A stretch of 64,000 bases of DNA, taken from sequence record JX560968. One strand, 5' to 3'. Position numbers and translations under genes: made by a program. Origin of the DNA: Escherichia phage EC6. Of the stretch, positions 6,656 through 64,000 are shown one piece after another (the stretch's first letter is position 1; the number at the start of each line of letters is the position of its first letter). The notes below the pieces were generated by a model that made no database searches, was not told the origin of the DNA, and saw only the letters and a list, made by a program, of their open reading frames with translations.

Positions 6656-12054
<5,399 letters not shown>

Positions 12055-12055
<1 letters not shown>

Positions 12056-13524
12056 TGGCAGGACTAACTACAACAGGATTACAAACTCTAAGATATCAGG
12101 AGATTTTTGATAATATCAAATCAAGACTTCTTAGAGATATTTCACCAAACCTTGACGTTTCTGAAGATAGTCAATTAGGACTCTTCCTAGCTTCAATTGC
12201 AAGGTCTTTAGCAGATACCCATGAGATTCTATCAGAAGTCTATGACGGTGGAACAATTGACAAGGCCGAAGGCTTTAACCTTGATGATATTACAGCTTTA
12301 AATGCTGTATATAGATATGTTGCTCAGGCAACAAGAGGTCAGGTAGAGTTTACTGGAACGACTGGTGCTACCATTCCTTCAACAACAAGACTAAGAAGTA
12401 CTGCCGGAAATATCTTTTATCCAGTTAACAACATTACCCTAACCCCATCATATTGTGTTGAAGCTGTCCTTGAAGTTAACTCTTTACGAACTGATGCAGA
12501 TTATGTTATTATTATTGATAACGTCATTTTCTCATATAAACCAACCTCATCAGACACAATCACCACACTTCTAACAAAATTAGCAGAAGCTATTAATGGT
12601 GGTATTGTAGCAAAGGCAGAAGTCATTAATGATGGAGCATCATTAAGAGTCTATAAAGATGAGGGTGATATCATTGCCAGAACAAACCCTATGGTTGTCA
12701 CTGCGACAACGTTTCTGACCTTTACAAAAATTACAACTATTTCAGATGTAGTAGCTGAAGAGGTGGGTGCTACTCCTGCTTTGGCTGGTACACTTATTGA
12801 GATTGAGACAACTGTTGATGGTCTTGACAGTATTTATAACAGGTATGACTTAACAACTGGTAGAAACGAAGAAACTGACACAGAACTTAGACAGAGATAT
12901 TTAGAATCCTTAGCAGTTACTGGTGTAGGGACTTTAGATGCAATTGTAGCTGCTGTTAAAAGAGTTCAAGGTGTCTCAGATGCTTCAGGTGTTGAAAATG
13001 ATACTGAAGAGACAAACTCAGAAGGTCTTCCACCAAAATCTTTTAAGATTGTCGTAGTTGGTGGTCAAAATGATAATGTAGCTCAGGCAATCTGGGATAC
13101 AAAACCTGCTGGTATTAGGGCTTATGGCTCAATTTTTGGTACAGCCTATGATTTAGGTGGTTTGGCACATAATATCTATTTTAGCAGACCAACACCAAAA
13201 TACGCATTTGTTAAGGTGTCTTACTCACTATATGATGAAGAAAGCTTGACAATCCCTGAAGAGGATATCAGAGACAGTATTGTACAAGGTATTAATGCCT
13301 ACGGAAGAACTCTTAAGGTTGGTAATGACGTTATCCCTAACAGAATCTATGGATATATCTATGACGTAATTAAAGGTATTGAGATTAATGAAGTTAAAGT
13401 AGCATTATCAAACAGTCAATCAGTTCCACCTAGTGACGGACAATATACTACAGCAAGAATTACTGTTGACGGTGACCAATATACTGTTTGGGAAAGCAGC
13501 CAGTATACCATCACTAAGGAGTAA
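12055..13524 (+). CDS. baseplate J-like protein (putative)
   Basis: 489-aa ORF following W-like ORF. Confidence 0.35.
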
Positions 13525-13526
13525 TA

Positions 13527-14381
13527 ATGTTTGAAAAGATTGATAGTGTTTATTACAAAACACTTGATGAACGAACTGTAACACAGTTTAAAGATAAGTT
13601 TATCTACACAAGCATCTTGAAAGCAATCACTGATGAGTTACAAACACTAGAGGATGTTTGCTGGCAGATGCACACAGAGAGAAATATCAGGACATCAGTA
13701 GGTCAACAACTTGATAATATTGGCTCACTGATTAAAGTTCCTAGACCTTTAGGTGCTGATGATGAAACATATAGAGCTATGCTTTATATCCAAATCTTCC
13801 TAAGACGCTCTGACACTACTCCAACATTCTTGCAAAAAGCAATTATGACACTGTATGGTGCAACTTTCTCTCAGATTTTTGAGCATATTACCCCTAAGAC
13901 TGGGGGTATCGTTATCCGTATCAACACTAGGAAAAGTGTTCTAGATGCTGCATATACACTGTCAAAGATTTCTGCAACAACTACTGGCTCCGCTGTTATC
14001 TTAAGAGATGTTACTTTAAAAGGAACTGCTTGGACTCCTGTAGAGGTTGCTGATTCATCACTTGCTATTGTTGATGATAAAGAGAACTGGTTTGTAACTG
14101 ACGCTAACAGAGGTCTTGTCACAAATAACACTGGTGGCTCTCTGGAGTCCAACATAGTAGGGAGCCTTGCAGATGCTGGTGTTATTGATGGTTACTTTAA
14201 GGTTGACAGAACAGCAAACTCACAGAGTGATGATTATATGACTGTAGATAGGTCTAATAACAGTGGATATTTCATCGTTGGTAAAGAAGCTATCGCAGGT
14301 GGTGCATACGGAATCATGGCTGAGGTTGCACAAATTGTCAAAGGCAGAAAAGATAAATCACAACAAGAAGGAAATTCTTAA
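13527..14381 (+). CDS. baseplate/tail fiber attachment protein (putative)
   Basis: 284-aa ORF between J-like and fiber genes. Confidence 0.3.
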
Positions 14382-21191: not shown

Positions 21192-21551
21192 TTATGGGAA
21201 CAGACACTTAATGTCATCGTTTTTGAAAACGAAGCTTGTGTAGTTGTGACCGTCAACATCCAGCCAAACAGCCTGAACATCTACACCATCAAGATTGTGG
21301 TAAAGCTCTTTGATGAAGAGGTCTTTCACAATCTGGCTGCTAGTTGTTTCCAGCTTAATGTTTGAGATTGCTGAACCTACAGCCATATAACCCATTACAC
21401 GTTTCTTCTCAGTATTCTTAATCTTACCATCTTTGTAAGTCATAATGAGATTGGAAAGAATCTTCACACCATAATACTTCTCAAGGTGAGTAGGTGCACC
21501 ATAAAAGCCTAATGCGAAGTTTTCAGAGTGGATAATGTTTTCACGTTTCAT
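21192..21551 (-). CDS. hypothetical protein
   Basis: 119-aa ORF. Confidence 0.3.
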   Translation of the reverse strand: MKRENIIHSENFALGFYGAPTHLEKYYGVKILSNLIMTYKDGKIKNTEKKRVMGYMAVGSAISNIKLETTSSQIVKDLFIKELYHNLDGVDVQAVWLDVDGHNYTSFVFKNDDIKCLFP

Positions 21552-25443: not shown

Positions 25444-26000
25444 TTAGTGTACTTCAAGCCAGCTTTTACCAACCTTACCAGTACCTGTAACAAGCGTTTC
25501 TTTCTTAAGACCTAAGTTTTTAGAAGCTTGCCCATAATACCAGTCAGTAACTGCTTTCACTTCTGCCGTCATACTTTCTGGACATTCCCAACTCGTCTCG
25601 TCGTGATAGGAGCACAATAAACGAGCACCTATAGCTGGTTTGCGACCGTTCAACTTCATCAAACCTTCGTCAATCATACGACGGCAAGCAAGGTTAATTG
25701 CTTCATTCTGAACCTGCGCCTCACTACCCATTAGGGTATAGTTTAATAGTTTATGCGGTGATTTACACCATAACCACGCCCCAGCGACCTGAATGTACCC
25801 ACCCTTAGCGATTGCAGCACTCTTGCCGAAAACCTCTTCTAATGCCTTCTTAGTGGCCTTAAAATCGGCTTCTAAGTTATCAAGTAGTTTCTTAATCTTT
25901 GGTAGACGCATATAGTAGGTCTGCTTAGTTAATGCACCTTCCTCTGTAGAAGCTGCCTTAATGGTCTTGGCAAACTTCTCATCACCTGCACCGAACAATA
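25444..26000 (-). CDS. family A DNA polymerase, exon 2 (C-terminal part incl. motif C)
   Basis: Begins ..LFGAGDEKFAKTIKA (second half of Pol A motif B, cf. T7 ...YGAGDEK) and contains LLCSYHDETSWECP (motif C HDE); track ORF starts at TTG. Confidence 0.7.
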
Positions 26001-26805
26001 CATCTGGTCAATACACTCGCAAGGTGTACCAGTTCTCTTATGAACTTCTCCGCATTTCTACGGAGTGTCGGACTATATCACGCAGTAGTAATACTACCGT
26101 TGCACTTGGGAATGGTCATTAGCTTACCACCCTACTCTACTCAGTTCATACATTAAGTATGCTTTTCGATAGTCTCTGAACGTTTCTCTGTTAGGAACTC
26201 TAAAATACTATTATTTACTAAGGTATGCAATTGCTCTCTTCATGTTCTCTATACTATCTGAGAACAGCCCAAGACCTCTGTTACAGTTGTGACACAGCAT
26301 ACCTCTTACCTGTCCTGTTTTGTGGTCATGGTCAACAACCAGCTTGGCTTTATGTCTTGAACCATCCATGATAAAACCTTCACCACCGCAGATTTGACAC
26401 TTGTGACCACACTTACTTAGTAACTCTTCGACCTCTTCTCTTTCTAAGCCGTAAGTCCTTAAGTAATAGTTCTTTACCCTTCCCTTTTCTCCACAAGCAG
26501 AACTGCAATACGTCTGTCTTGCTGTTCTAGGTGTAAACTGGTTATTGCAGCTTGGACATATTTTCTCTATGACACGACTTGCTGCTCTTCTGTCTACTTC
26601 AAGAACGCAGTTTCTACAACGTTTTTGATTGTACTGATATGGCTTAAACTCTTCGCCACATCTGGAACAAACTCTTTCTTTATAACCTGCCATTGTCTCT
26701 CTCCCATTTCTACTATAGGAGTCCTAACAGAGACTTCGCTGCTGATTACCATATCTTTACAGACTTAGGCTTCCAGCAATTCACAACGTTTTACATGCGC
26801 CACTG
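26001..26805 (-). mobile_element. group I intron (about 805 nt) in DNA polymerase gene, carrying an HNH homing endonuclease ORF
   Basis: Exon 1 ends ...AUCUAUGCGU; intron starts CAGUG-GCGCAU (P1: exon AUGCGU pairs with GCGCAU, U-G at splice site); intron ends ...GACCAGAUG; 3' part has GACUAUCG, GUAGGGU, GAUAUAGUCC elements like T4 td-type introns; joined exons restore ...KAKNGIYA-LLFGAGDEK. Confidence 0.6.
26211..26693 (-). CDS. HNH homing endonuclease (endonuclease VII-like) inside the intron
   Basis: Cys-rich zinc-binding N-terminus and HNH core LVVDHDHKTGQVRGMLCHNCNRGLG. Confidence 0.7.
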   Translation of the reverse strand: MAGYKERVCSRCGEEFKPYQYNQKRCRNCVLEVDRRAASRVIEKICPSCNNQFTPRTARQTYCSSACGEKGRVKNYYLRTYGLEREEVEELLSKCGHKCQICGGEGFIMDGSRHKAKLVVDHDHKTGQVRGMLCHNCNRGLGLFSDSIENMKRAIAYLSK

Positions 26806-28948
26806 ACGCATAGATACCATTCTTAGCCTTCTTACGGCCTTTAGTTATCTCGTGAAGAAGTTCTTCATCCTGAGTTTCTCTACAACGAATAATGTCATCC
26901 TCTTTGTTCAATGCAAAGTAGATGCTGTTAAGCGTATGTGCATCAGTACCTGTATACACCTCATATAAGTCATTATCCATATCGTAACGACAATACTTGT
27001 CAGTCTCTGGATTGAGGTACTTGTCAAGATGTTTGCAGTAGTACCGTCCATCATCCTGTTTAGTGAACTCGACAAACTCTTTACCTTCAGTTACTGCTTT
27101 AGTGAACTCTTTATCACCCATAAAGTTACACAGTAAAACAAGCTGTGCAGAGTTCTGGTCAACTGAAACGATGTTAGTCCCTTCCTCACAAATCCACACC
27201 TCCCTCATAGGTGCTCCATAGACAGCAGCACCAGATGGTACGTTTACAATACCATACTGCGTCATACGTCCAGTTGAAGTACCAAACACCATTGCACCAG
27301 CACTAAGGCGACCATCTGGACGAATCTGGTTCAACCAACCTTTTTCATCATCCTTTGAGTTCTCAATAGTTCTGCGTCGGTGCATCAAAGTATAGTACTT
27401 AGCAATCTTCTGTCCAAGTTCACCTTCAATCGTATCATAAGATGATTCAGTAAGTTTTGGTGAAGTACGGATTAAGCAAGGCTCAAGCAAATCTGTGTAC
27501 TTCTTCACAGACCAGTTATGCTCAATGTACTGTACACCTTCATGTTCAACATAACTCAAACCACACCGCTCAACCATTTCCTGCCACTTAGGATGCTTTG
27601 TAATCATCTTTTTATTGTCTTTGAAACGACAAACTTTGACAGGGTGACCATCTGAGTCTTTCTTGTAGTTCCAGTCATCTGGAATCCAACCAACTGATTT
27701 CAAGTAGTCTTTAACAACTGCTACCTGAGTCATACGAGAAACTTCAAACTCAATTGGTGTATATGGTGCATCAATCAAACCTGTGTAGCGACTTGACTCA
27801 AGTTCAAAGTGGTTAACAACGTGGCTGTTATAGTACTTCACAGTTTTGACTGTTTTTACTGGCTTCCAGTCTTTGCATTTCTTACCAATCTTTGCATTCA
27901 ACTCATTGCAAATTGCACGAGCATCCTTCATTGCTACAAAGCCTTCCTTGTACTCTTCACCAGTTACAGAGTTGGTTGGTGTATAGCAATTTCTCTTTTC
28001 AATGTTAAAAATCTTTGTAGTTGGCTTACCAAATGGCTTGATTTCGTATGTCTGCATCTCACCGTTACGTACCTGCTGACGATACTTTGTCTTAGGATAC
28101 TTGGTAATCCTCTTCAGTCCATCTGCATGACCAAATGTTTCAACATACTCATTCCAAGCTTTTGCAAACTCTTCTCCAGTGACTTTACCTTTGGTCTTAA
28201 TAGTTGGAGGAAGATGTGGTTCAACCTCTGAAGCAAGCTCATTAGTCAACTTGTCAAGTTCCTTTACATGGAACTCCATAAGCTCTTTATCAGCTTTCCA
28301 ACCATTGATAGCTTGTTGACTCATCCAGAAAGATGTTTCTTTAGCTCGCATGTAAGTTTCATAAGTGTCTATACCACACTTCTTAAGCTTGAGATACTCG
28401 TTATCAAGTGCCCGTTTAGTTTTGGCGTTAATACGGATATCTTCTACAACACGAGTGAAGATTTCTGCATTCCACACACCCCAATGTTCAATCTCTGGTT
28501 TACGAACACCAACACGAGCACCCCATGCAGCCAAACCATGAGCACCTTTATAACCCTTTGGAGTTGGTCTATCCATCCACTGAACACGAGACTGGATAAG
28601 AGAATCCTGAAAGAAATTACTCCACGGTTTACACTTTGGATTATCAAAGTTCCATAAATCAGGTGCAATGTGATTGAAAACCCACCAGTCATAACCGAGA
28701 CCGTTGTGGATGCAAAGACGTTTTGCCTTTAACGCAAACTCAATACCTTCACGTAAGCCACCCTTGATGTACTTGGTATACTTGTGACCGAGGATAGGCT
28801 CATCTGTAAAGACCCATACAGGTGGCTCTTCATCATCAGATTTATAGTCTGCGAAAGCCATTACGTGCACTTTAGTGAACTCAAGGAGTAAACCATCAGT
28901 TTCTGTATCACCAACTAAATGTAAGTTTTTAAAATCTACGTTTTCCAT
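26806..28948 (-). CDS. family A DNA polymerase, exon 1 (3'-5' exonuclease and N-terminal polymerase domains)
   Basis: Exo motif LVGDTETDGL (cf. Pol I DTETDSL); ends ...GRKKAKNGIYA (first half of motif B); likely start is ATG at 28948 (GAGGGAG RBS) rather than track start 28978. Confidence 0.75.
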
Positions 28949-28978
28949 TTTTACTCCCTCTAAAATCATTAACCTCAT

Positions 28979-29205
28979 ACATTACTGCAAAAAATTATAA
29001 AAAGCAAGTTGACAATGCACTTGACAAGGTGTTAATCTTTGCGAAGTGGGTTTTTACTTAAAAGGTTACTTAACAGTTTAACTATACAGATACTTTAAAA
29101 CTCTTAAAAGATTATTTAATAGCTTTTAAAAAGCTTTAAAGTATAACGTATAGAATACGTTAAGATAAAAGATTAAAACTTAATAGTTACTTAAAAGAGG
29201 CTTAC
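28979..29205. promoter_or_regulatory. AT-rich divergent control region between minus-strand DNA polymerase and plus-strand gene block
   Basis: Tandem TTGACA elements at 29028-29033 and 29040-29045; palindromes AGCTTTTAAAAAGCT (29121-29135) and TAACGTA-N5-TACGTTA (29144-29162). Confidence 0.35.
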
Positions 29206-29628
29206 ATGCAGAAAATGTTTGCTCACCCAGACATAGCTGACTTTGTTAGAGCTTTGCAGAAGTTGGAAGAACTTGACATTGCTGCTCAACGGGAATATGC
29301 TCACCATCACAGGAGAATGGTTGATATACAACATGAAATAGAGTTGTCTGAAAACTATGAAGATGACTTAAAATGCTCTGTATTTGAGCATATGAAAGAT
29401 GTTGCTACAGCGAGACGCAAAGCTAAAGACACAGTTGCTTTACTAGATTCTCTTAAAAAGAGGTTGCAAAGTGGTACAGACCTGTGTAATCTAGCGTCAC
29501 TGATTAACGATGTTGAAACTTCTTGGGATAGGCACTATTATCCACGTTCTGAAAAGACACTTGACTTTTCTTCATCCGAAAACTTAAAATGTTCTAGAAA
29601 GAAACTTAACCAACTGAGAGAGAAATAA
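29206..29628 (+). CDS. hypothetical protein
   Basis: 140-aa ORF, first gene of plus-strand block. Confidence 0.35.
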   Translation: MQKMFAHPDIADFVRALQKLEELDIAAQREYAHHHRRMVDIQHEIELSENYEDDLKCSVFEHMKDVATARRKAKDTVALLDSLKKRLQSGTDLCNLASLINDVETSWDRHYYPRSEKTLDFSSSENLKCSRKKLNQLREK

Positions 29629-29629
29629 T

Positions 29630-29893
29630 ATGAATATCGATGTAGAAAAGATGCTTGAAGAGAAAGGTGTTGATGAAGCATTCTTAATCAATGCCGTAGA
29701 AAGCATGGCTATGATTCTTCGTGGTAATAACTACACAGAACAGTTTATGCCTGCAAGCTATAACTTGCCTGAAGACAAGTCTGATAACGGTGCTTTTGCA
29801 GAACAGGTTAATATGATGTTGACAGACACTACACTTGCTCTGGCATCTATTGCGGTTGGTGTTGATGCACTTGCTGAGTTCAGTTTTTTATGA
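29630..29893 (+). CDS. hypothetical protein
   Basis: 87-aa ORF. Confidence 0.3.
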   Translation: MNIDVEKMLEEKGVDEAFLINAVESMAMILRGNNYTEQFMPASYNLPEDKSDNGAFAEQVNMMLTDTTLALASIAVGVDALAEFSFL

Positions 29894-29894
29894 A

Positions 29895-30440
29895 ATGCAA
29901 AAGAATGACTATATCAGGATGTCAGACGAAGATAAGGAACTGTTGCTGACTAAGGACACTGATTTCATTATTGATACACTTATCTCATCAACAAGTGCTG
30001 TTATGGCTGTTCTTGAGAAGCGTATGGAAGAGAAACTTTCACGATATGAAAAACTTGATTGGGGCGTAGAAGAATTAAACCCACGAATCAAAGAGATTAT
30101 CCAGCAAACTAAAGAGTCTTTGGAAGAAGCTGTTGAAAATGACTCTGTAGCTGACATTGAACCACTTCAGGTGAAAGTTGCACTGATGATTCCAGCTATC
30201 TCTACGATGATGAATATCGTTGCACTAATCCAACTGTCACAGATGATGGGTGTGAGTATTGAGTTCATTGAGGAAATGACTGGTGGCGTTAGTATGCAAG
30301 CAATCAATGATGTTTTGGTGAACATTGGTGCTTCAATCATTGAAGAGAAACTACGCATTAACTTCGGTGATGATTTTGTGAAGCAAATCTCAGCTATGGC
30401 TGAAAAGAGTCTGCTGAGCAACTGCACTAAGTCTTTATAA
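29895..30440 (+). CDS. hypothetical protein
   Basis: ATG at 29895 overlaps upstream stop (ATGA-type coupling); track ORF 29835 starts further upstream. Confidence 0.3.
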   Translation: MQKNDYIRMSDEDKELLLTKDTDFIIDTLISSTSAVMAVLEKRMEEKLSRYEKLDWGVEELNPRIKEIIQQTKESLEEAVENDSVADIEPLQVKVALMIPAISTMMNIVALIQLSQMMGVSIEFIEEMTGGVSMQAINDVLVNIGASIIEEKLRINFGDDFVKQISAMAEKSLLSNCTKSL

Positions 30441-30447
30441 ATCTTAC

Positions 30448-30473
30448 AAGCCTCCTTAGTTGGGGGCTTTTTA
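30448..30473 (+). terminator. rho-independent terminator
   Basis: AAGCCTCC-TTAGTT-GGGGGCTT hairpin then TTTTT. Confidence 0.5.
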
Positions 30474-30491
30474 GTAATTAAGGGAGATAAA

Positions 30492-31235
30492 ATGAGTAAT
30501 ATTATCGCATTTACTGGAAAGGCACGTTCTGGAAAAGACACCTCATGTTCTATTGTGAAGAACATCTTAGAGGATGAGTATGGCTACAATGTTGCTGTAA
30601 TGGCCTTTGCAGACAACCTTAAACTATCTGCATCAAAGATATTTGACTTGACTTGGAATGACCTGTACGGTGAAACTAAAGAGACTCCACAGGTATTTGA
30701 CTTATCATATTATGAACTGATGTTTAAAGTTACGGAAGCTATGGAGTTCACCTTCAGAGATGAACGTTATCATATGGACTTCAAGCTTATGTCAGAGTTA
30801 ACCGGACGATTAATCATGGAGCTTAAGAAGGTTGCTAAACCTACCATACTAACACGTCTGGGATTTAGTAAAAAGTATAAATTCTCATCAAGACAAATTC
30901 AACAAATTTGGGGTACTGAAGTTGTCCGTAAGGTAATGGGCGACAAGTTCTGGTCTAAAGACCTTGAAAAAAGAATGGTTAGATTCCATGAAATGTGCTC
31001 ACTTAGAAATCAGTATGGTTTTGTCTTAATCAGTGATTTAAGATTTGACTCTGAAGCTGAATGGCTGAGTAGATTTGCACACCAAACTATTGAAGTAAAA
31101 AGAGACAATGTGGACAAAGTTTCATCACATGTTTCAGAAAATGGGATTTCTACAAAATATGAGCGTGACATTATTCATAATAATGGTACTCTTGCAGACC
31201 TTGAGAACAAGCTAAGAGCCATCATTAAAGTTTAA
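30492..31235 (+). CDS. deoxynucleoside monophosphate kinase (T4 gp1-like)
   Basis: N-terminal Walker A IIAFTGKARSGKDT closely resembling T4 gp1; 247 aa. Confidence 0.6.
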   Translation: MSNIIAFTGKARSGKDTSCSIVKNILEDEYGYNVAVMAFADNLKLSASKIFDLTWNDLYGETKETPQVFDLSYYELMFKVTEAMEFTFRDERYHMDFKLMSELTGRLIMELKKVAKPTILTRLGFSKKYKFSSRQIQQIWGTEVVRKVMGDKFWSKDLEKRMVRFHEMCSLRNQYGFVLISDLRFDSEAEWLSRFAHQTIEVKRDNVDKVSSHVSENGISTKYERDIIHNNGTLADLENKLRAIIKV

Positions 31236-31243
31236 AAGAGAGA

Positions 31244-31444
31244 ATGAAGATGAGAGTAAAAGACAATTTTAAAGTTATTGACCACCGTTTAGTGGAACTC
31301 TCATCTCTTTCCAATGAGGTAATGATTGAACGTCTTAAGAGAGTTGAATCACGAAGGAAAGAGATTGCAGATGAAATTCATGAACTGGACAAGATTGAAA
31401 ATGGATTGAAGGCAGAACTACAACGAAGAGGTGCTAATGTCTAA
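31244..31444 (+). CDS. hypothetical coiled-coil protein
   Basis: 66-aa ORF. Confidence 0.3.
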   Translation: MKMRVKDNFKVIDHRLVELSSLSNEVMIERLKRVESRRKEIADEIHELDKIENGLKAELQRRGANV

Positions 31445-33422
31445 AGGTCGTAAATTGAAAGAGGCTGGTCAGTTTGTTGGTCATTGCGCATGTCCACGTT
31501 GTGGTTCATCAGATGCTGGTTCAATCTACCATCATGACGATGATTCTTATTCAATGACTTGCTTTAGCTGTAACAAAGGTTTCCCAGAGTGGGATTTTGA
31601 TAAAGGACAAATCGTGAGCACTTATTCTACTGGTTCAGATAATAAAAACCGTACTTTTCGTGGAATGGATTTAGACGATGTAAAAGAAAACCTAGAAGCG
31701 ATGGACTTGAAAGACAGGAAGATTCCTGCAAAAGTTCTTGAGCGTTTGGGTATTAAGGTTGACATTGACAGTGATGGTGAAATTGACGCGCATTTCTACC
31801 CAACTTACAAACGCAATGAAGATGGCAAGCTAGAGCATGTTGGCTACCGTGTTCGTCACCGTTACCCAGAAGACCATCCAAAAGAGCACCTACGAGGTAA
31901 GTTAAAAGACTTTTCTGGTGGTGTTGGAGACATTAAAGGTGAACTGGCAATGTTCGGTTCATGGATTGCTCCAGAAGGTGGTAACCGTCTATTCATCTGG
32001 GAAGGTGAGATGGAATGTGCGACAGCAATCTATATGACTTCTCTTGCGATTAAGGACAAATCTCGTCGTAAGAATTACTGTCATGTATCTGTTCCGTCAG
32101 GTGCAAACATCAAGTCTATCAAAGATAACTATCAGTACATCACATCATTTGATGAAATTTACTTGTGCTTTGATAACGATGAAGCAGGTGCTAAAGCTAC
32201 CAAAGAGGCTGCTGGTATCTTACCTATTGAGAAAGTTCGTTTATTCCAGTATCCAGAGGGTGTAAAAGACCTTAACGAATGGTGGACAAAGTTCTATAAA
32301 GAGAAAGACACAGTTCTGGAAGGATTTAAGCAGCGTATCTACAACGCACCTCGTTATTGCCCTGCTGGTATCAAGAACTTTGCAGATGGTTTTGAGGCAA
32401 TGAAGAACCGTGGTCAGATTCCATTGATTCCTTTCCCAGAATCTTTCGGGGATTTGAACAGACTGACTTATGGTGGTTACGGTTTAGGCGAGATTACGAC
32501 TATCGCAGCACCATCTTCAGTAGGTAAGTCAGCTTACACTCGTGAGATGATTTATTCAGCTTGGAAAGAAACTGATTATAATATCGGTGTAATTCCTGTA
32601 GAAGATACCTATGAAGAGTTGATGGAGATGCTCTGTGCAATCCACCTAAGCAAGCAGATTTCTGAGATTCCTTATGACGAACGTGATTGGGATGAATTGA
32701 AGGAAGCACACGCAGAGCTATCTAAAGGTCGTCGTATCCATATCGTTGACCATCAAGGGGCAATTGACCAAGATAACCTGCTGGAGTTTGTTGACTATCT
32801 TGTTAATAGCTTAGACTGTAAGATTATTATTCTTGACCCTATTACGTTGGCTCTGTCACGTTCTGATACGGATGAAGAGGAAGTTTTGTCTGAGCTATTG
32901 CGTCGTTGCAAACGCTACCAGTATGCGCAGGTAAACGTATGTCACGTTCGTAAGAGTGCAGGTGGTCAGAAAGCCAACTCTGAAGGTGGAGATATCTCTG
33001 AAGAGGATATTAAGGGTTCTGGTGCATACTTCCAGATTTCTATGAACAACATTCTGTTAATGCGTAACAAGGTTGACCCAGACCCTGTTAAGAAAAACTT
33101 GACAAAAATCAAGTTAACTAAGTGTCGTCGTCATGGTAAGTCAACAGGTATTGCTGGCCATACTTGGTACAATCCAGATACAGGACGTCTCATCAAAGCT
33201 TCTGGATGTGGTGTTGACATTGATGGTGCAGCAGAAAATATTCGGCAACAGTTTGGTATTGGTGAAGCTGAAGACCATTACGATGACTCTTTACCTCATT
33301 ATGAGGATGAAGTGTTTGACCGTGAGACTGGTGAAGTCTATACTGAAGAACAGCGTCAAAGCTCAACGATTCCACCTGTATTAATTGAGGATGCAGATGA
33401 CTGCCCGTTTGAAACTGAGTGA
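31437..33422 (+). CDS. DNA primase-helicase (T7 gp4-like)
   Basis: Zinc-ribbon CPRCGSSD...CFSCN; TOPRIM FIWEGEMECA and LCFDNDEAG; helicase Walker A APSSVGKSAYT; start taken at ATG 31437. Confidence 0.7.
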   Translation: MSKGRKLKEAGQFVGHCACPRCGSSDAGSIYHHDDDSYSMTCFSCNKGFPEWDFDKGQIVSTYSTGSDNKNRTFRGMDLDDVKENLEAMDLKDRKIPAKVLERLGIKVDIDSDGEIDAHFYPTYKRNEDGKLEHVGYRVRHRYPEDHPKEHLRGKLKDFSGGVGDIKGELAMFGSWIAPEGGNRLFIWEGEMECATAIYMTSLAIKDKSRRKNYCHVSVPSGANIKSIKDNYQYITSFDEIYLCFDNDEAGAKATKEAAGILPIEKVRLFQYPEGVKDLNEWWTKFYKEKDTVLEGFKQRIYNAPRYCPAGIKNFADGFEAMKNRGQIPLIPFPESFGDLNRLTYGGYGLGEITTIAAPSSVGKSAYTREMIYSAWKETDYNIGVIPVEDTYEELMEMLCAIHLSKQISEIPYDERDWDELKEAHAELSKGRRIHIVDHQGAIDQDNLLEFVDYLVNSLDCKIIILDPITLALSRSDTDEEEVLSELLRRCKRYQYAQVNVCHVRKSAGGQKANSEGGDISEEDIKGSGAYFQISMNNILLMRNKVDPDPVKKNLTKIKLTKCRRHGKSTGIAGHTWYNPDTGRLIKASGCGVDIDGAAENIRQQFGIGEAEDHYDDSLPHYEDEVFDRETGEVYTEEQRQSSTIPPVLIEDADDCPFETE

Positions 33423-33491
33423 TAGTTATAAAAGAGAGGGGTTCATACCCTTCTTTGAAGAAAAAGTTTAAATGAATTTCAGGAAGAGTGT

Positions 33492-33520
33492 TTGACAAAG
33501 GTTGATAGGTTCTATAGAAT
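33492..33520 (+). promoter_or_regulatory. sigma70-like promoter TTGACA-N17-TAGAAT
   Basis: TTGACA 33492-33497, TAGAAT 33515-33520. Confidence 0.5.
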
Positions 33521-33673
33521 GCTCTACATGAAATGTGATGGAGGCGTTGAGGTAGAAGAAAAGTTCCATCACAGTATAATAACAGTCACTATTACTATAC
33601 CTCGACATAATATTGGTTGGCTGTTTATAATTAAAGAAAATGTGTTTGAATATCAAGTATATCGGAGAATATC

Positions 33674-33823
33674 ATGAAACACTCTAAAGCATTTGAAAAA
33701 GTTTTTGGGGATTCCTTAAAAGCCACTGCTGGTAAACCAGCAAAATACTATGAAGAGAAGCGTGTAAGAACTGGAAAAACTGCACGTAAAGCAGCTTCTA
33801 AAGATAAGCACAACTTCCAGTAA
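33674..33823 (+). CDS. small basic protein (49 aa), not in ORF track
   Basis: ATG with GGAG RBS 9 nt upstream; MKHSKAFEKVFGDSLKATAGKPAKYYEEKRVRTGKTARKAASKDKHNFQ. Confidence 0.3.
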   Translation: MKHSKAFEKVFGDSLKATAGKPAKYYEEKRVRTGKTARKAASKDKHNFQ

Positions 33824-33830
33824 TTAATGT

Positions 33831-33859
33831 TTGACAATAGAGTATCAACAAATTAGAAT
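33831..33859 (+). promoter_or_regulatory. sigma70-like promoter TTGACA-N17-TAGAAT
   Basis: TTGACA 33831-33836, TAGAAT 33854-33859, upstream of 33896 gene. Confidence 0.55.
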
Positions 33860-33895
33860 TGGTACTCTTCATAAATTGAGATAGAGGTTTAAATA

Positions 33896-34753
33896 ATGTC
33901 TAAAGTTGTTAAAATGAAAGCTCCGGTAGAGAAGTACAATGGTACTGAGCGTCAAACTCTGCGTTACCTGTTGAAAGATGTTTGGTTTTATTACCTGAAC
34001 ACTTCACCACGTCCGGCAAAAGGTAAATCCATTGATAAGAAATTCCCAGGAAAAGATTGTAACTACAGTGTTTCAATTCTGGCAGAAGATGGTAACAAAC
34101 TATTTAAAGAGTTTACTAAGTCTAAGAAAAACCCAGAAGGTTGGGATAAAGTTACTACTGAAGCAGTTGATGCAGATGACTTCGAAGAGAAGTTTGGTTG
34201 CAAACCACCATTTGAAGCAGACACTTACCACATCTTGAAAGTAAGTCGTGCAGCAGCTTATAAAGATGGTGCTGTGTGGACAGCTAAACAGTCATTCCCT
34301 GTGATGCTGATTGAAGAAGTAAATGGTAAGCGTGTAGCTGTTAAACAGCCGATGAAGAAAATCAAAGCTCAAGCATCTGACAAACATGAAGATGACAAGA
34401 ACTATGATGTAATTCATCCAGATATTGCAGTTGGTAACGGTTCTTTTGGTAGTGTGATTCTTTCTACTCACTTCTACACTTTTGAGAACAATGTTCTGAC
34501 AAAACCTATTCAGGAACAGTTTATCATTGATACTCTTGTACCTTACACTGGTGGTAACGGTGCTAATGGCGAACCTGAACTGGATGAAGACGAACTGGCT
34601 ATGCTTGGTCTTGATGGTGTTGAAGATAACGGTGAAATCACTGAAGAAGACGCAAAAGACCACAAACCTTCGAATGATTCTGATGATGGTGACGATGAAG
34701 ACTTGCCAGACCCAGATGACGAAGAAGATGAAGACTTCGATACAGAAGACTAA
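33896..34753 (+). CDS. single-stranded DNA-binding protein (putative; acidic C-terminal tail)
   Basis: 285 aa; C-terminus DDGDDEDLPDPDDEEDEDFDTED typical of phage SSBs; strong promoter and RBS; among replication genes. Confidence 0.4.
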   Translation: MSKVVKMKAPVEKYNGTERQTLRYLLKDVWFYYLNTSPRPAKGKSIDKKFPGKDCNYSVSILAEDGNKLFKEFTKSKKNPEGWDKVTTEAVDADDFEEKFGCKPPFEADTYHILKVSRAAAYKDGAVWTAKQSFPVMLIEEVNGKRVAVKQPMKKIKAQASDKHEDDKNYDVIHPDIAVGNGSFGSVILSTHFYTFENNVLTKPIQEQFIIDTLVPYTGGNGANGEPELDEDELAMLGLDGVEDNGEITEEDAKDHKPSNDSDDGDDEDLPDPDDEEDEDFDTED

Positions 34754-45077: not shown

Positions 45078-45087
45078 AACTTGACAA

Positions 45088-45126
45088 GGTGGTGTGAGTC
45101 TTGATAGGCTTACATCACCTTTTTAT
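45088..45126 (+). terminator. rho-independent terminator
   Basis: GGTGGTGTGAG...CTTACATCACC stem (11 bp incl. two G-U) then TTTTTATT. Confidence 0.5.
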
Positions 45127-47239: not shown

Positions 47240-47755
47240 ATGTACCTGTCAAACCTGAAACGTTCGGCTGCAATGTCAGTTCTAAGACTCAGCTTTGAGG
47301 AACGTCAAGAGTTCATTGACTCCCACCAATATGACCCTTCCAACTCCAATCACATGATTCTCTGGAATCGTGAGAGTACTCGTGAAAGAGCATTATTCCG
47401 ATATTACCCATACTACACCATAGACAACCTGTATGAATGTTTTGTTGTGAAGAACACCATTACAGTACTCAATAAACTTTGCAGATACACAGGTAGTCAA
47501 TCCTTCACATTAGGCCACCACAAACCTGTTACAAAGGGTGGTGAGCATCACTGTGCAAACTGGTTTATCCAGACTAAACTTGATAATCAGAAGCAAGGAG
47601 ATAGTCTTTTAAGCACCTCTAAGATGACCTATGAAGAGCAAGAGAAATATATCAAAAATAATATGCCAGATGTGCTTGACAACAACTATACAGATTTGGC
47701 AATATCTCTCCTGTTGAAGTTCGAGACAGTTTATAGGGCAACTTATAATGGCTAA
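47240..47755 (+). CDS. HNH-motif nuclease-like protein (putative)
   Basis: LGHHKPVTKGGEHHCANWFIQTKLDNQKQGD resembles an HNH core. Confidence 0.35.
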   Translation: MYLSNLKRSAAMSVLRLSFEERQEFIDSHQYDPSNSNHMILWNRESTRERALFRYYPYYTIDNLYECFVVKNTITVLNKLCRYTGSQSFTLGHHKPVTKGGEHHCANWFIQTKLDNQKQGDSLLSTSKMTYEEQEKYIKNNMPDVLDNNYTDLAISLLLKFETVYRATYNG

Positions 47756-63380: not shown

Positions 63381-63722
63381 ATGGCTTATGTAACTGTAAT
63401 TACTGATAAAGCTGATTCATCTTGGCCAACTCAAGTAAGCGATAAGATGACACCTATGCAGTGCCTAAAATACTTTGAGCAATGGAATAAAGGAGAAGGT
63501 GTCAGCCCCTTTCAAGTGATGCAGGTTATCCATGTAAGCGATAAAGGGATTAAAACAGTTTTAAACAGTGAACACTATACAACACGATTTGAAACGAGAT
63601 GTAAAACGATGAAACTGTTACGCGAATCCGGTTATTCTCATATTGCCGCGCTAATCTGGGATGACTTGCTAAAAAATCAGCGTATCAGCTACGTAAAACC
63701 TGAAAAAATATTCATCAGTTAA
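63381..63722 (+). CDS. early hypothetical protein
   Basis: 113 aa. Confidence 0.4.
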   Translation: MAYVTVITDKADSSWPTQVSDKMTPMQCLKYFEQWNKGEGVSPFQVMQVIHVSDKGIKTVLNSEHYTTRFETRCKTMKLLRESGYSHIAALIWDDLLKNQRISYVKPEKIFIS

Positions 63723-63754
63723 TCAATAACTTACAAAAAACTTCTAAAAAAGTG

Positions 63755-63783
63755 TTGACAATACCCCTTGACATTGGTAACTT
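63755..63783 (+). promoter_or_regulatory. sigma70-like promoter TTGACA-N17-TAACTT
   Basis: TTGACA 63755-63760; second overlapping TTGACA at 63768-63773. Confidence 0.35.
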
Positions 63784-63852
63784 TGTTCGAGGGGGTTTAT
63801 CTTAAAGGGATTCACTTAAAAGATTTCTTTAAAGATAAACTTAAAAAATTGC

Positions 63853-63946
63853 TTGCAATCAGATATCAAAACAAGTAAATTACTAATCAACGGGGAGGGA
63901 ATGACCTTCCCCACTAAGTAAAACCCTTAAACTAGGAGATTCTAAA
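63853..63946 (+). promoter_or_regulatory. promoter + 5' stem-loop + SD cassette (type I)
   Basis: TTGCAA-N17-TAAATT; GGGGAGGGAATGACCTTCCCC hairpin; AGGAGATTCTAAAATG. Confidence 0.5.
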
Positions 63947-64000
63947 ATGAACAAATTTCAAGCTATCAACTATATTCGTTCCGTCAATGTCATGTCTAAA
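63947..64000 (+). CDS. early hypothetical protein (3' end outside window)
   Basis: ATG after type I cassette; reads MNKFQAINYIRSVNVMSK to window end. Confidence 0.35.
   Translation, partial: MNKFQAINYIRSVNVMSK

Follow-up and report, generated by a model that had tools for sequence, protein, structure and literature searches.

Which signals lie in the spacer between the DNA polymerase gene and gp97 of Escherichia phage EC6, where the direction of the genes changes? A stretch of 64,000 nucleotides from sequence record JX560968 was analysed, and this whole stretch is called the window below. The spacer covers 28949-29205 (257 bp, concerning both strands). It separates a family-A DNA polymerase gene on the minus strand (ATG at 28948) from gp97, which encodes a hypothetical protein of 140 amino acids on the plus strand (ATG at 29206). 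It is the equivalent of the spacer between ORF220/gene 96 and ORF229/gene 97 of phage Felix O1 (AF320576). An earlier note on this DNA had described an AT-rich interval of 227 bp with tandem TTGACA elements and two palindromes, and it had proposed early promoters and operator sites at a switch of transcription direction. The elements were present, with the hexamers at 29009-29014 and 29021-29026 and the palindromes at 29121-29135 and 29144-29162, and they went beyond what chance can be expected to produce. The switch of direction between the minus-strand polymerase gene and the plus-strand gp97 was confirmed. Sequence features, conservation, paralogy and promoter scores suggested that, in this Felix O1-like phage, two early or middle transcription units probably start in the spacer and run apart from it. 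Transcription start sites and functional roles are given below as predictions from them.

The rightward promoter P97 and its second hexamer

Promoters were scored by a position-weight scan that allowed a TGn extension and covered 639,720 combinations of position and spacer in the window. A site named P97 scored 11.8 bits and ranked 29 of 639,720, where the 99.99th percentile was 10.7 bits. Its -35 hexamer was TTGACA at 29009-29014 on the plus strand, which matched the consensus at six of six positions. The TGn-extended -10 element, TGTTAATCT, was found at 29030-29038 on the plus strand, and its hexamer TAATCT at 29033-29038 lay 18 bp after the first TTGACA. Directly upstream of the -35 hexamer, an A-rich tract, AAAAAATTATAAAAAGCAA, occupied 28990-29007 on the plus strand. 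This tract was UP-element-like, a likeness that we assume from the UP-element consensus. Transcription from P97 is predicted to start near 29045 on the plus strand. The site scored 11.8-12.4 bits in all nine distinct sequences from three genera, with TAATCT or, in Mooglevirus, TAGTCT as the -10 hexamer. In the case of Arno162, the equivalent was TTGACA-N17-TAGGCT, and in the case of Kolesnikvirus it was TTGACA-N17-TACATT. In addition, the record of vB_EcoM_AYO145A (NC_028825) carried a plus-strand promoter feature TTGACA...TAATCT at the exact equivalent of 29009-29038, plus a minus-strand feature. These results suggested that, with the first TTGACA as its -35 box, P97 is a credible sigma-70 promoter for the host polymerase.

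The second TTGACA, at 29021-29026 on the plus strand, lay inside the P97 spacer at about -24 to -19. It was invariant, whereas the 6 nt between the two hexamers varied. The exact arrangement TTGACA-N6-TTGACA occurred once in the window. At 15-19 bp after the second hexamer, the best -10 sequences were GAAGTG or AAGTGG, which scored 4.1-4.4 bits, and the paralogous sites likewise had no usable -10 there. Because the second hexamer was placed inside the spacer of the first and had no -10 element of its own, it was not a separate promoter, and a reading of the two hexamers as tandem promoters was ruled out.

The doubled hexamer was found at other sites. The Felix O1 genome (AF320576) had exactly three perfect doubled-TTGACA sites, all on the plus strand, at 63532, 21515 and 11269. 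The site at 63532 was P97 in the genes 96/97 spacer. The site at 21515 was P41 of the 2010 genome paper in the other divergent spacer (genes 40/41). The site at 11269 corresponded to 63755 of the window, upstream of ORF50, and was not a divergent junction. The three modules had in common AAAAAAG upstream, TTGACAA-N4-5-CTTGACA, a TAnnnT hexamer 17-18 bp after the first TTGACA (TAATCT, TAGGCT and TAACTT) and a leader of 120-190 nt that was rich in A and T. Both hexamers of both other modules were retained in Suspvirus and Mooglevirus, where the intervening bases differed. The module of the window at 63740-63947 (plus strand) contained an A-tract, TTGACA-N7-TTGACA, TGn-TAACTT, a G-rich start, CTTAAAAG/CTTTAAAG units and a hairpin, GGGGAGGG-AATGA-CCTTCCCC, upstream of the gene starting at 63947. 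Because the spacer held one of three paralogues, including one at a non-divergent site, the promoter-leader module has the look of a general-purpose start for transcription units, not of a device specific to divergence.

A pattern scan of IMG/VR for the doubled-hexamer promoter gave 70 loci. Among them were contigs from outside the Ounavirinae with an A-tract, a doubled TTGACA and GGTG-TAnnnT, which were characterised by PHROG hits only. One group (L066, L057, L043, L056 and L085) carried SbcCD-like genes, a helicase and the phrog_138 head protein, and another (L081, L024 and L045) carried an hmC glucosyltransferase and TerL. These contigs had no megablast match in the phage collection. Since the design was present in three modules per genome and in unrelated metagenomic phage contigs, the doubled hexamer is a recurrent promoter design.

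The leftward start was less clear, and no convincing promoter was found on the minus strand. A weak candidate on the minus strand, TTGCTT (29007-29002)-N17-TAATGT (28984-28979), was conserved and stood back to back with P97 at 28979-29007. In the form TTGCTT-N17-TA(A/G)(T/G)GT it scored about 6 bits, and the position of its -10 element was conserved. An alternative weak candidate on the minus strand at 29081-29109, TTTTAA (29109-29104)-N17-TATAGT (29086-29081), scored 7.3 bits and was invariant in nine sequences. A better site, TTGACT-N17-TACCAT, precedes gene 40 in the genes 40/41 spacer and has the same back-to-back layout. The weak back-to-back promoter TTGCTT-N17-TAATGT is the one that probably serves the polymerase gene. 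A perfect TATAAT on the minus strand at 28999-28994 was dropped, as it was absent outside Felixounavirus and had no -35 element at 15-19 bp. The divergent promoters proposed earlier were supported on the plus strand, and on the minus strand they came down to these two weak conserved candidates.

Further promoter-like sites were observed. Four near-consensus sigma-70 promoters preceded the gene at 33896 within about 550 bp, at 33316-33860 (TTGACC-17-TATACT, TTGACA-17-TAGAAT twice, and TCGACA-18-TATAAT), and they included the two best-scoring sites of the window. At 45079-45115, ACTTGACAAGGTG had 13 nt in common with 29019-29031 and formed TTGACA-N18-TAGGCT, which ranked 11 in the promoter scan. 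In the stretch 47676-47696, AACTATACAGAT at 47685 came directly behind a TTGACAA, close to where the open reading frame (ORF) at 47240-47755 ends, and was a repeat of 12 nt from 29080-29091. In the genes 40/41 spacer of Felix O1 (L010), TATAAATA was located at 21538-21550, directly after the -10 element of P41 and at the head of the structural gene block. We take this sequence to be identical to the T4 late-promoter consensus. Suspvirus and Mooglevirus had TAATAAAA or TAATAAAT at this site.

The leader, its repeat units and its hairpins

The predicted 5' leader of P97 covers 29045-29205 on the plus strand, with about 160 nt and about 23% G+C. It contained an array of short units ending in AG at 29054-29141 (plus strand), made up of CTTAAAAG, CTTAACAG, CTATACAG, TTTAAAAC, CTTAAAAG, TTTAATAG, TTAAAAAG and CTTTAAAG. 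A second group at 29164-29200 (plus strand), with GATAAAAG, TTAAAAC, CTTAATAG and CTTAAAAG, ran into the Shine-Dalgarno (SD) sequence AAGAGG of gp97 (29195-29200). Roughly ten CTTWANAG units were counted in the leader, mostly 8-13 nt apart, with CTTAAAAG three times. The exact motif CTTWANAG occurred 6 times in the 161-nt leader where 0.19 was expected, and none of 2000 local dinucleotide shuffles reached this number. The P97 leader was the densest plus-strand cluster of CTTWANAG in the Felix O1 genome. The motif was also over-represented genome-wide, with 97 occurrences against 31 expected in the window and 133 against 65 in Felix O1 (fourth-order Markov model).

Similar units and one hairpin each were found in both paralogous leaders. 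The leaders of Arno162 and Kolesnikvirus were unalignable, yet they were again built as arrays whose 11-14-nt units had ACAG or AAAG at the end, and the arrays began just after the predicted transcription start. In addition, Felix O1 had a stretch of 1.6 kb at 12.3-13.9 kb (12300-13950) that was free of ORFs and bracketed by terminators. Its minus strand was packed with CTTAACAG/CTAACAAG/CTTTACAG units spaced 10-12 nt apart, and two stretches inside it ranked second and third in the genome for low DNA stability. This region lies just outside the window. The genome of Felix O1 ends in short terminal repeats (PMC3185647), and the 1.6-kb region may be related to the genome ends. Because TWANAG(A/G)G was the usual ribosome-binding context of the phage genes, the CTTWANAG units could be degenerate copies of it.

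The two palindromes were located inside the predicted transcript. Palindrome 1, AGCTTTTAAAAAGCT, was 15 nt long at 29121-29135 (plus strand), and its AGC/GCT ends were invariant. Palindrome 2, TAACGTAT-AGA-ATACGTTA, at 29144-29162 (plus strand), had arms of 8 bp and a centre of 3 nt, and it was the TAACGTA-N5-TACGTTA of the earlier note. They began 83 and 106 bp after the P97 -10 element and extended to about 125 bp, and neither overlapped a strong promoter candidate on either strand. A search for the palindromes elsewhere, which had been suggested as a check, returned no other copy in the window even with 2-3 mismatches allowed. In palindrome 1, the variant A29130G (AYO145A, Suspvirus) gave a U.G pair on the plus-strand RNA, and the loop was UAA or UUAAA. 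In palindrome 2, seven pairs were kept in all sequences and two pairs were changed on both sides, A:T to T:A in the Suspvirus and Mooglevirus sequences and C:G to T:A in the Mooglevirus sequences except Sf13. The covariation score was not reached in any of 500 shuffles, a value that rests on only two events. The centre was AGA, AAC (Mooglevirus) or TCT (phiST56). Since the stem was kept by compensatory changes while the centre varied freely, small leader hairpins appeared to be a better fit for the palindromes than repressor operators. An alignment fold of the leader supported these two hairpins only.

In Salmonella phage SLAM_phiST56 (L016), the AGA at the equivalent of 29152-29154 was exactly inverted to TCT with unchanged arms, which has the signature of a template-switch or hairpin-mediated inversion. 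Other structures of the leader were rejected. TAGAAT in palindrome 2 was excluded as a -10 element because its centre was TCT in phiST56 and AAC in Mooglevirus and no -35 element fitted. A long inverted repeat at 29090-29144 with 27-nt arms came from a single-sequence fold and was unsupported, as the substitutions at 29101/29102 were uncompensated. In the fold of the window sequence, the G-rich 5' end paired with the SD region, and such sequestration was dropped because the partner bases were not conserved in other genera. An Rfam scan of 28000-30200 at a permissive threshold gave only chance-level matches (E at least 1), far below the gathering scores.

The spacer was clearly under selection, as judged from its variation. 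The 361-bp piece 28900-29260 had at least 99% identity in 134 of 257 phage records, against at most 97.6% for the surrounding 4.6 kb. The identity to Suspvirus and Mooglevirus was 80-86% in the spacer, 83-86% in the first 900 nt of the polymerase gene, 65-76% in gp97 and 55-61% in the next 700 nt. This meant that, between genera, the spacer was conserved as well as the coding sequence of the DNA polymerase and better than gp97. Among 25 distinct versions from GenBank and IMG/VR, substitutions within the genus clustered in the 4-6 nt between the TTGACA hexamers, at 29101/29102 and in the loop of palindrome 2. The rest was nearly invariant.

Weighing of the explanations

Divergent early promoters had been assumed in the genes 96/97 spacer by the Felix O1 genome paper (Whichard et al. 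2010, PMC3185647), which found no sigma-70-like sequence there. By reverse transcription PCR, ORF96 RNA was detected within 5 min of infection, and in Table 3 of the same paper ORF96 and ORF97 both peaked at 25 min (PMC3185647). For ORF97, these data go no further than showing that it is transcribed. Felix O1 has been rebooted in E. coli cell-free extract (PMC10933291), which means that the host polymerase suffices to start the programme. Based on these data and on our results, we favour the following mechanism for a diverging start region. To the right, the host sigma-70 RNA polymerase would use P97, with its A-tract, TTGACA, 18-bp spacer and TGn-TAATCT, and would start near 29045. The transcript would carry a leader of about 160 nt with about 77% A+U, CTTWANAG units and two small hairpins, and the leader would end in the ribosome-binding site of gp97. 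The second TTGACA may give RNA polymerase, or an accessory factor, one more contact or another register in which to dock. To the left, the weak promoter back to back with P97 would serve the polymerase gene. For the leader, we infer with low confidence a cis effect on the RNA being made, by way of mRNA stability, translation or the binding of a factor. In that case the palindromes would form hairpins in RNA or DNA and would not be repressor operators.

Several points weighed against this mechanism. In a simple consensus scan, no site in the spacer matched at 10 or more of 12 positions, so P97 was not listed, and its -10 hexamer agreed with TATAAT at only three of six positions. The position-weight scan gave no leftward promoter above about the 99.9th percentile. 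The z-scores for RNA folding of the whole leader were weak (-2.0 and -2.4). Literature searches found no mapping of transcript 5' ends or of an origin for any phage of the Ounavirinae. The roles of the second TTGACA and of the CTTWANAG units were left unexplained. In addition, the unit spacing of 10-14 nt suited a binding array on DNA as well as one on RNA, and the same units in the 1.6-kb non-coding region of Felix O1 suited a DNA-level array equally.

The palindromes had been proposed as operators, and in this case a dimeric regulator of the phage or the host would bind them and switch the divergent promoters on and off. Dyad symmetry was present and both palindromes were strongly conserved. 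The half-sites at 29144-29162 changed together in two lineages, which could also be co-evolution with a dimeric protein, and the shared 25-min peak of ORF96 and ORF97 (PMC3185647) would fit such a switch. Against this, the palindromes lay 83-125 bp downstream of the P97 -10 element, overlapped no good promoter and were single-copy in the window. The A-to-G variant of palindrome 1 broke the DNA symmetry and kept a U.G pair in the plus-strand RNA, and the central 3 bp of palindrome 2 were free to vary, even inverted. The adjacent gp97, which was the one protein examined for this, had no detected DNA-binding domain. We consider operators quite unlikely. The hairpins could also be part of a lambda-type nut site, where a boxA-like element and a boxB-like hairpin would load an antitermination complex for the downstream intrinsic terminators. 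The sequence CTCTTAAAA at 29101-29109, when checked against the lambda sequence, matched 9 nt of nutL exactly; in nutL, GCTCTTAAAAATTAA stands ahead of the boxB hairpin. In the window, CTCTTAAAA was followed after 14 nt by the 15-nt hairpin in a promoter-proximal leader, the paralogue P41 had CTCTAAAAAGGCTATTTAAA and then a hairpin, and read-through of numerous terminators was left without explanation in the genome paper (PMC3185647). However, the matching boxA-like bases varied (CTCTT in the window, CCCTT in Suspvirus and Sf13, GTCTT in the other Mooglevirus sequences), and the resemblance was downgraded because the matching bases were the variable ones. Positions 29101/29102 were polymorphic within the genus, and a conserved boxA of the CGCUCUUA type was not found. 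The spacing of the hairpin differed from lambda, its loop was UAA or UUAAA and not GNRA-like, and the Rfam scan had no match. An N-like protein was not identified, although no search was aimed at such proteins. An antitermination site is therefore very improbable here.

In the case of the repeat units, a phage or host protein might bind CTTWANAG in the DNA and coat the starts of transcription units and the 1.6-kb region, for example in early promoter shut-off or in a nucleoprotein complex. The unit spacing of 10-14 nt in all arrays was near one helical turn, and the same units filled the terminator-bracketed, ORF-free region of Felix O1. The array was kept in Arno162 and Kolesnikvirus despite unalignable sequence, and the genome-wide excess of the units pointed in the same direction. 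In contrast, the units in all leaders ran with transcription and started just after the predicted start, which fits a role in RNA equally. They may also be degenerate copies of the ribosome-binding context, and the array is without a known candidate binding protein. Such coating is unlikely in our view. A replication origin was given more weight, and it is compatible with P97 as a promoter. The spacer may also, or mainly, be a transcription-activated origin of the T7 type, in which the promoter fires into the most easily melted DNA, a transcript or R-loop primes the T7-like DNA polymerase and a gp4-like primase-helicase loads, with the units perhaps acting like iterons. The 160-bp window starting at 29049 was the least stable duplex of the 64-kb window and of all 86 kb of Felix O1, with -173 kcal/mol compared to a mean of -204 (standard deviation 6.5) and -177 for the next least stable. 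The leader also held the least stable 100-bp window of the genome. This site came immediately after P97, with the family-A DNA polymerase gene on one side and the primase-helicase block on the other. The polymerase, primase-helicase and exonuclease of Felix O1 are T7-like (PMC3185647).

The T7 genome was used as a control with 60-bp windows. Its least stable stretches started at 417, 5932, 18561 and 39243, which was just downstream of phiOL, phi1.1B, phi6.5 and phiOR, respectively. We take phi1.1A/B to be the primary origin and phiOL and phiOR to be secondary origins. The AT-rich part of the T7 origin was a leader of CTTAAG/CTTTAAG-type units, and GTTTAACT was common to T7 and the window. On the other side, similar promoter-leader modules at two other sites meant that the architecture was not unique. 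No initiator protein was identified, gp97 being a helical protein without recognisable function, and transcription or translation alone would also be reason enough to expect an AT-rich leader. The GC skew was rejected as an origin signal because it merely mirrored gene orientation. An origin at this spacer is thus a serious possibility, though we hold it tentatively. A wider claim would join the doubled-hexamer host promoter, the least stable DNA, the CTTWANAG units of about 12 nt read by a protein and the 1.6-kb region into one cis-element system that makes the spacer the replication origin of Felix O1-type phages. This is more doubtful. If true, it would be a system not described before, and across the Ounavirinae it would link early transcription to the initiation of replication and perhaps to functions of the genome ends.

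Gene setting and comparison with known systems

The sequence match placed the window in a known genus. A megablast search with 26700-31300 gave 260 phage records, almost all of them Felixounavirus, and the top match had 97.6% identity over the full length. By this match, the window is a Felixounavirus genome with about 97% identity to known isolates. The query 28900-29260 (361 bp) had 99.4% identity to Felix O1 (AF320576). Beyond gp97, the gene order was a 'minor tail protein' homologue, a dNMP kinase and the primase-helicase. The ORF tool had placed the start of the polymerase ORF at ATG 28978. The in-frame ATG 28948 had a strong SD sequence, GAGGGAG, at 28954-28960 on the minus strand, and its equivalent was the annotated start in other genera, where 1-nt frame-breaking indels occurred just upstream. 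Because of this SD sequence and these indels, the spacer was taken to start at 28949 and not at 28979. Its length was 257-259 bp in Suspvirus and Mooglevirus. The AT-richness of the interval described earlier was confirmed (25.5% GC at 29000-29199, against about 39% in the flanks), and its left edge was moved to 28949, which extended it from 227 to 257 bp.

In the case of gp97, PHROG and Pfam gave no function and no DNA-binding domain was detected. A single-sequence AlphaFold model was a helical bundle of low confidence (predicted local distance difference test, pLDDT, 64). A role of gp97 as regulator or initiator was dropped on these grounds. The polymerase gene of the window was in two pieces on the minus strand within 25444-28948, at 25444-25998 and 26765-28948. 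An endonuclease ORF at 26211-26693 lay between them and was labelled 'endonuclease VII' in the near-identical JLBYU32 record. The Felix O1 counterpart was a single intact gene of 906 amino acids, and in the window a mobile endonuclease seems to have been inserted, or the gene is a split one. The gp98 homologue (phrog_4251) at 29630-30440 was labelled 'minor tail protein' despite its place in the replication block, and it had no Pfam or PDB match. It consisted of two overlapping ORFs (29630-29893 and 29835-30440), where relatives had one ORF of 266 amino acids; the break reflects a frameshift or else an error in sequencing.

Among Salmonella phages, Felix O1 is a classic for typing and biocontrol. 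To read the spacer as a divergent control region is reasonable, and both a published paper and a GenBank annotation had done so before. In contrast, the palindromes did not look like operators, given their distance downstream of the -10 element, their single copies, the free centre and the compensatory stem. Four points appear to be new: the doubled -35 design in three modules per genome and in unrelated phage contigs, the repeat-built leader with an array conserved across the subfamily, the covarying hairpin, and the finding that the segment is the duplex-stability minimum of the genome. They are details of an ordinary, known kind of element. Testable coordinates are given for the main rightward early promoter of a Felix O1-type phage, and the adjacent leader was flagged as the best origin candidate by a criterion that recovers the T7 origins. 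The constraint on non-coding segments matters for phage engineering, as in Felix O1 cell-free systems. The discovery is modest unless the origin or the binding array proves true.

The comparison with published work showed the same locus, with 99.4% identity and divergent early promoters assumed (PMC3185647, NC_028825). The doubled-hexamer element common to the genes 96/97 spacer and its own P41 was not noticed in the genome paper (PMC3185647), and the second hexamer, the repeat-built leader and the covarying hairpin were described neither there nor in NC_028825. Reference promoters for P97 are the rrnB P1 promoter with its UP element and the TGn promoters. Strong sigma-70 promoters of E. coli and its phages have the same upstream A-tract, perfect TTGACA, 17-18-bp spacer and TGn followed by TAnnnT. 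However, P97 keeps a second perfect TTGACA in the spacer, 12-13 bp after the first. To our knowledge, no promoter class with a conserved second TTGACA inside the spacer has been described.

The leader resembled several known systems in part. Lambda nutL and the P97 leader have the 9-nt identity of CTCTTAAAA and a following 15-nt hairpin, whereas the boxA-like bases of the P97 leader are not conserved between genera and the spacing and loop differ. The T4 gene 32 translational operator is an unstructured A/U-rich leader with UUAAA repeats. Likewise, the P97 leader is long and A/U-rich, has many UUAAA(A) repeats and precedes the first gene of a replication block. In contrast to T4, the gene after the P97 leader was not recognisable as a single-strand-binding protein, similar leaders precede unrelated genes and no 5' pseudoknot was seen. 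In the case of the T7 primary origin, with phi1.1A, phi1.1B and an AT-rich leader, the DNA that the promoters face is likewise among the least stable of the genome. Its AT-rich part doubles as an mRNA leader of CTTAAG/CTTTAAG-like units, and the replication enzymes are T7-like in both. However, P97 is a promoter for the host polymerase where the T7 promoters are for the phage polymerase, and it has two -35 boxes 12 bp apart where T7 has two complete promoters 75 bp apart.

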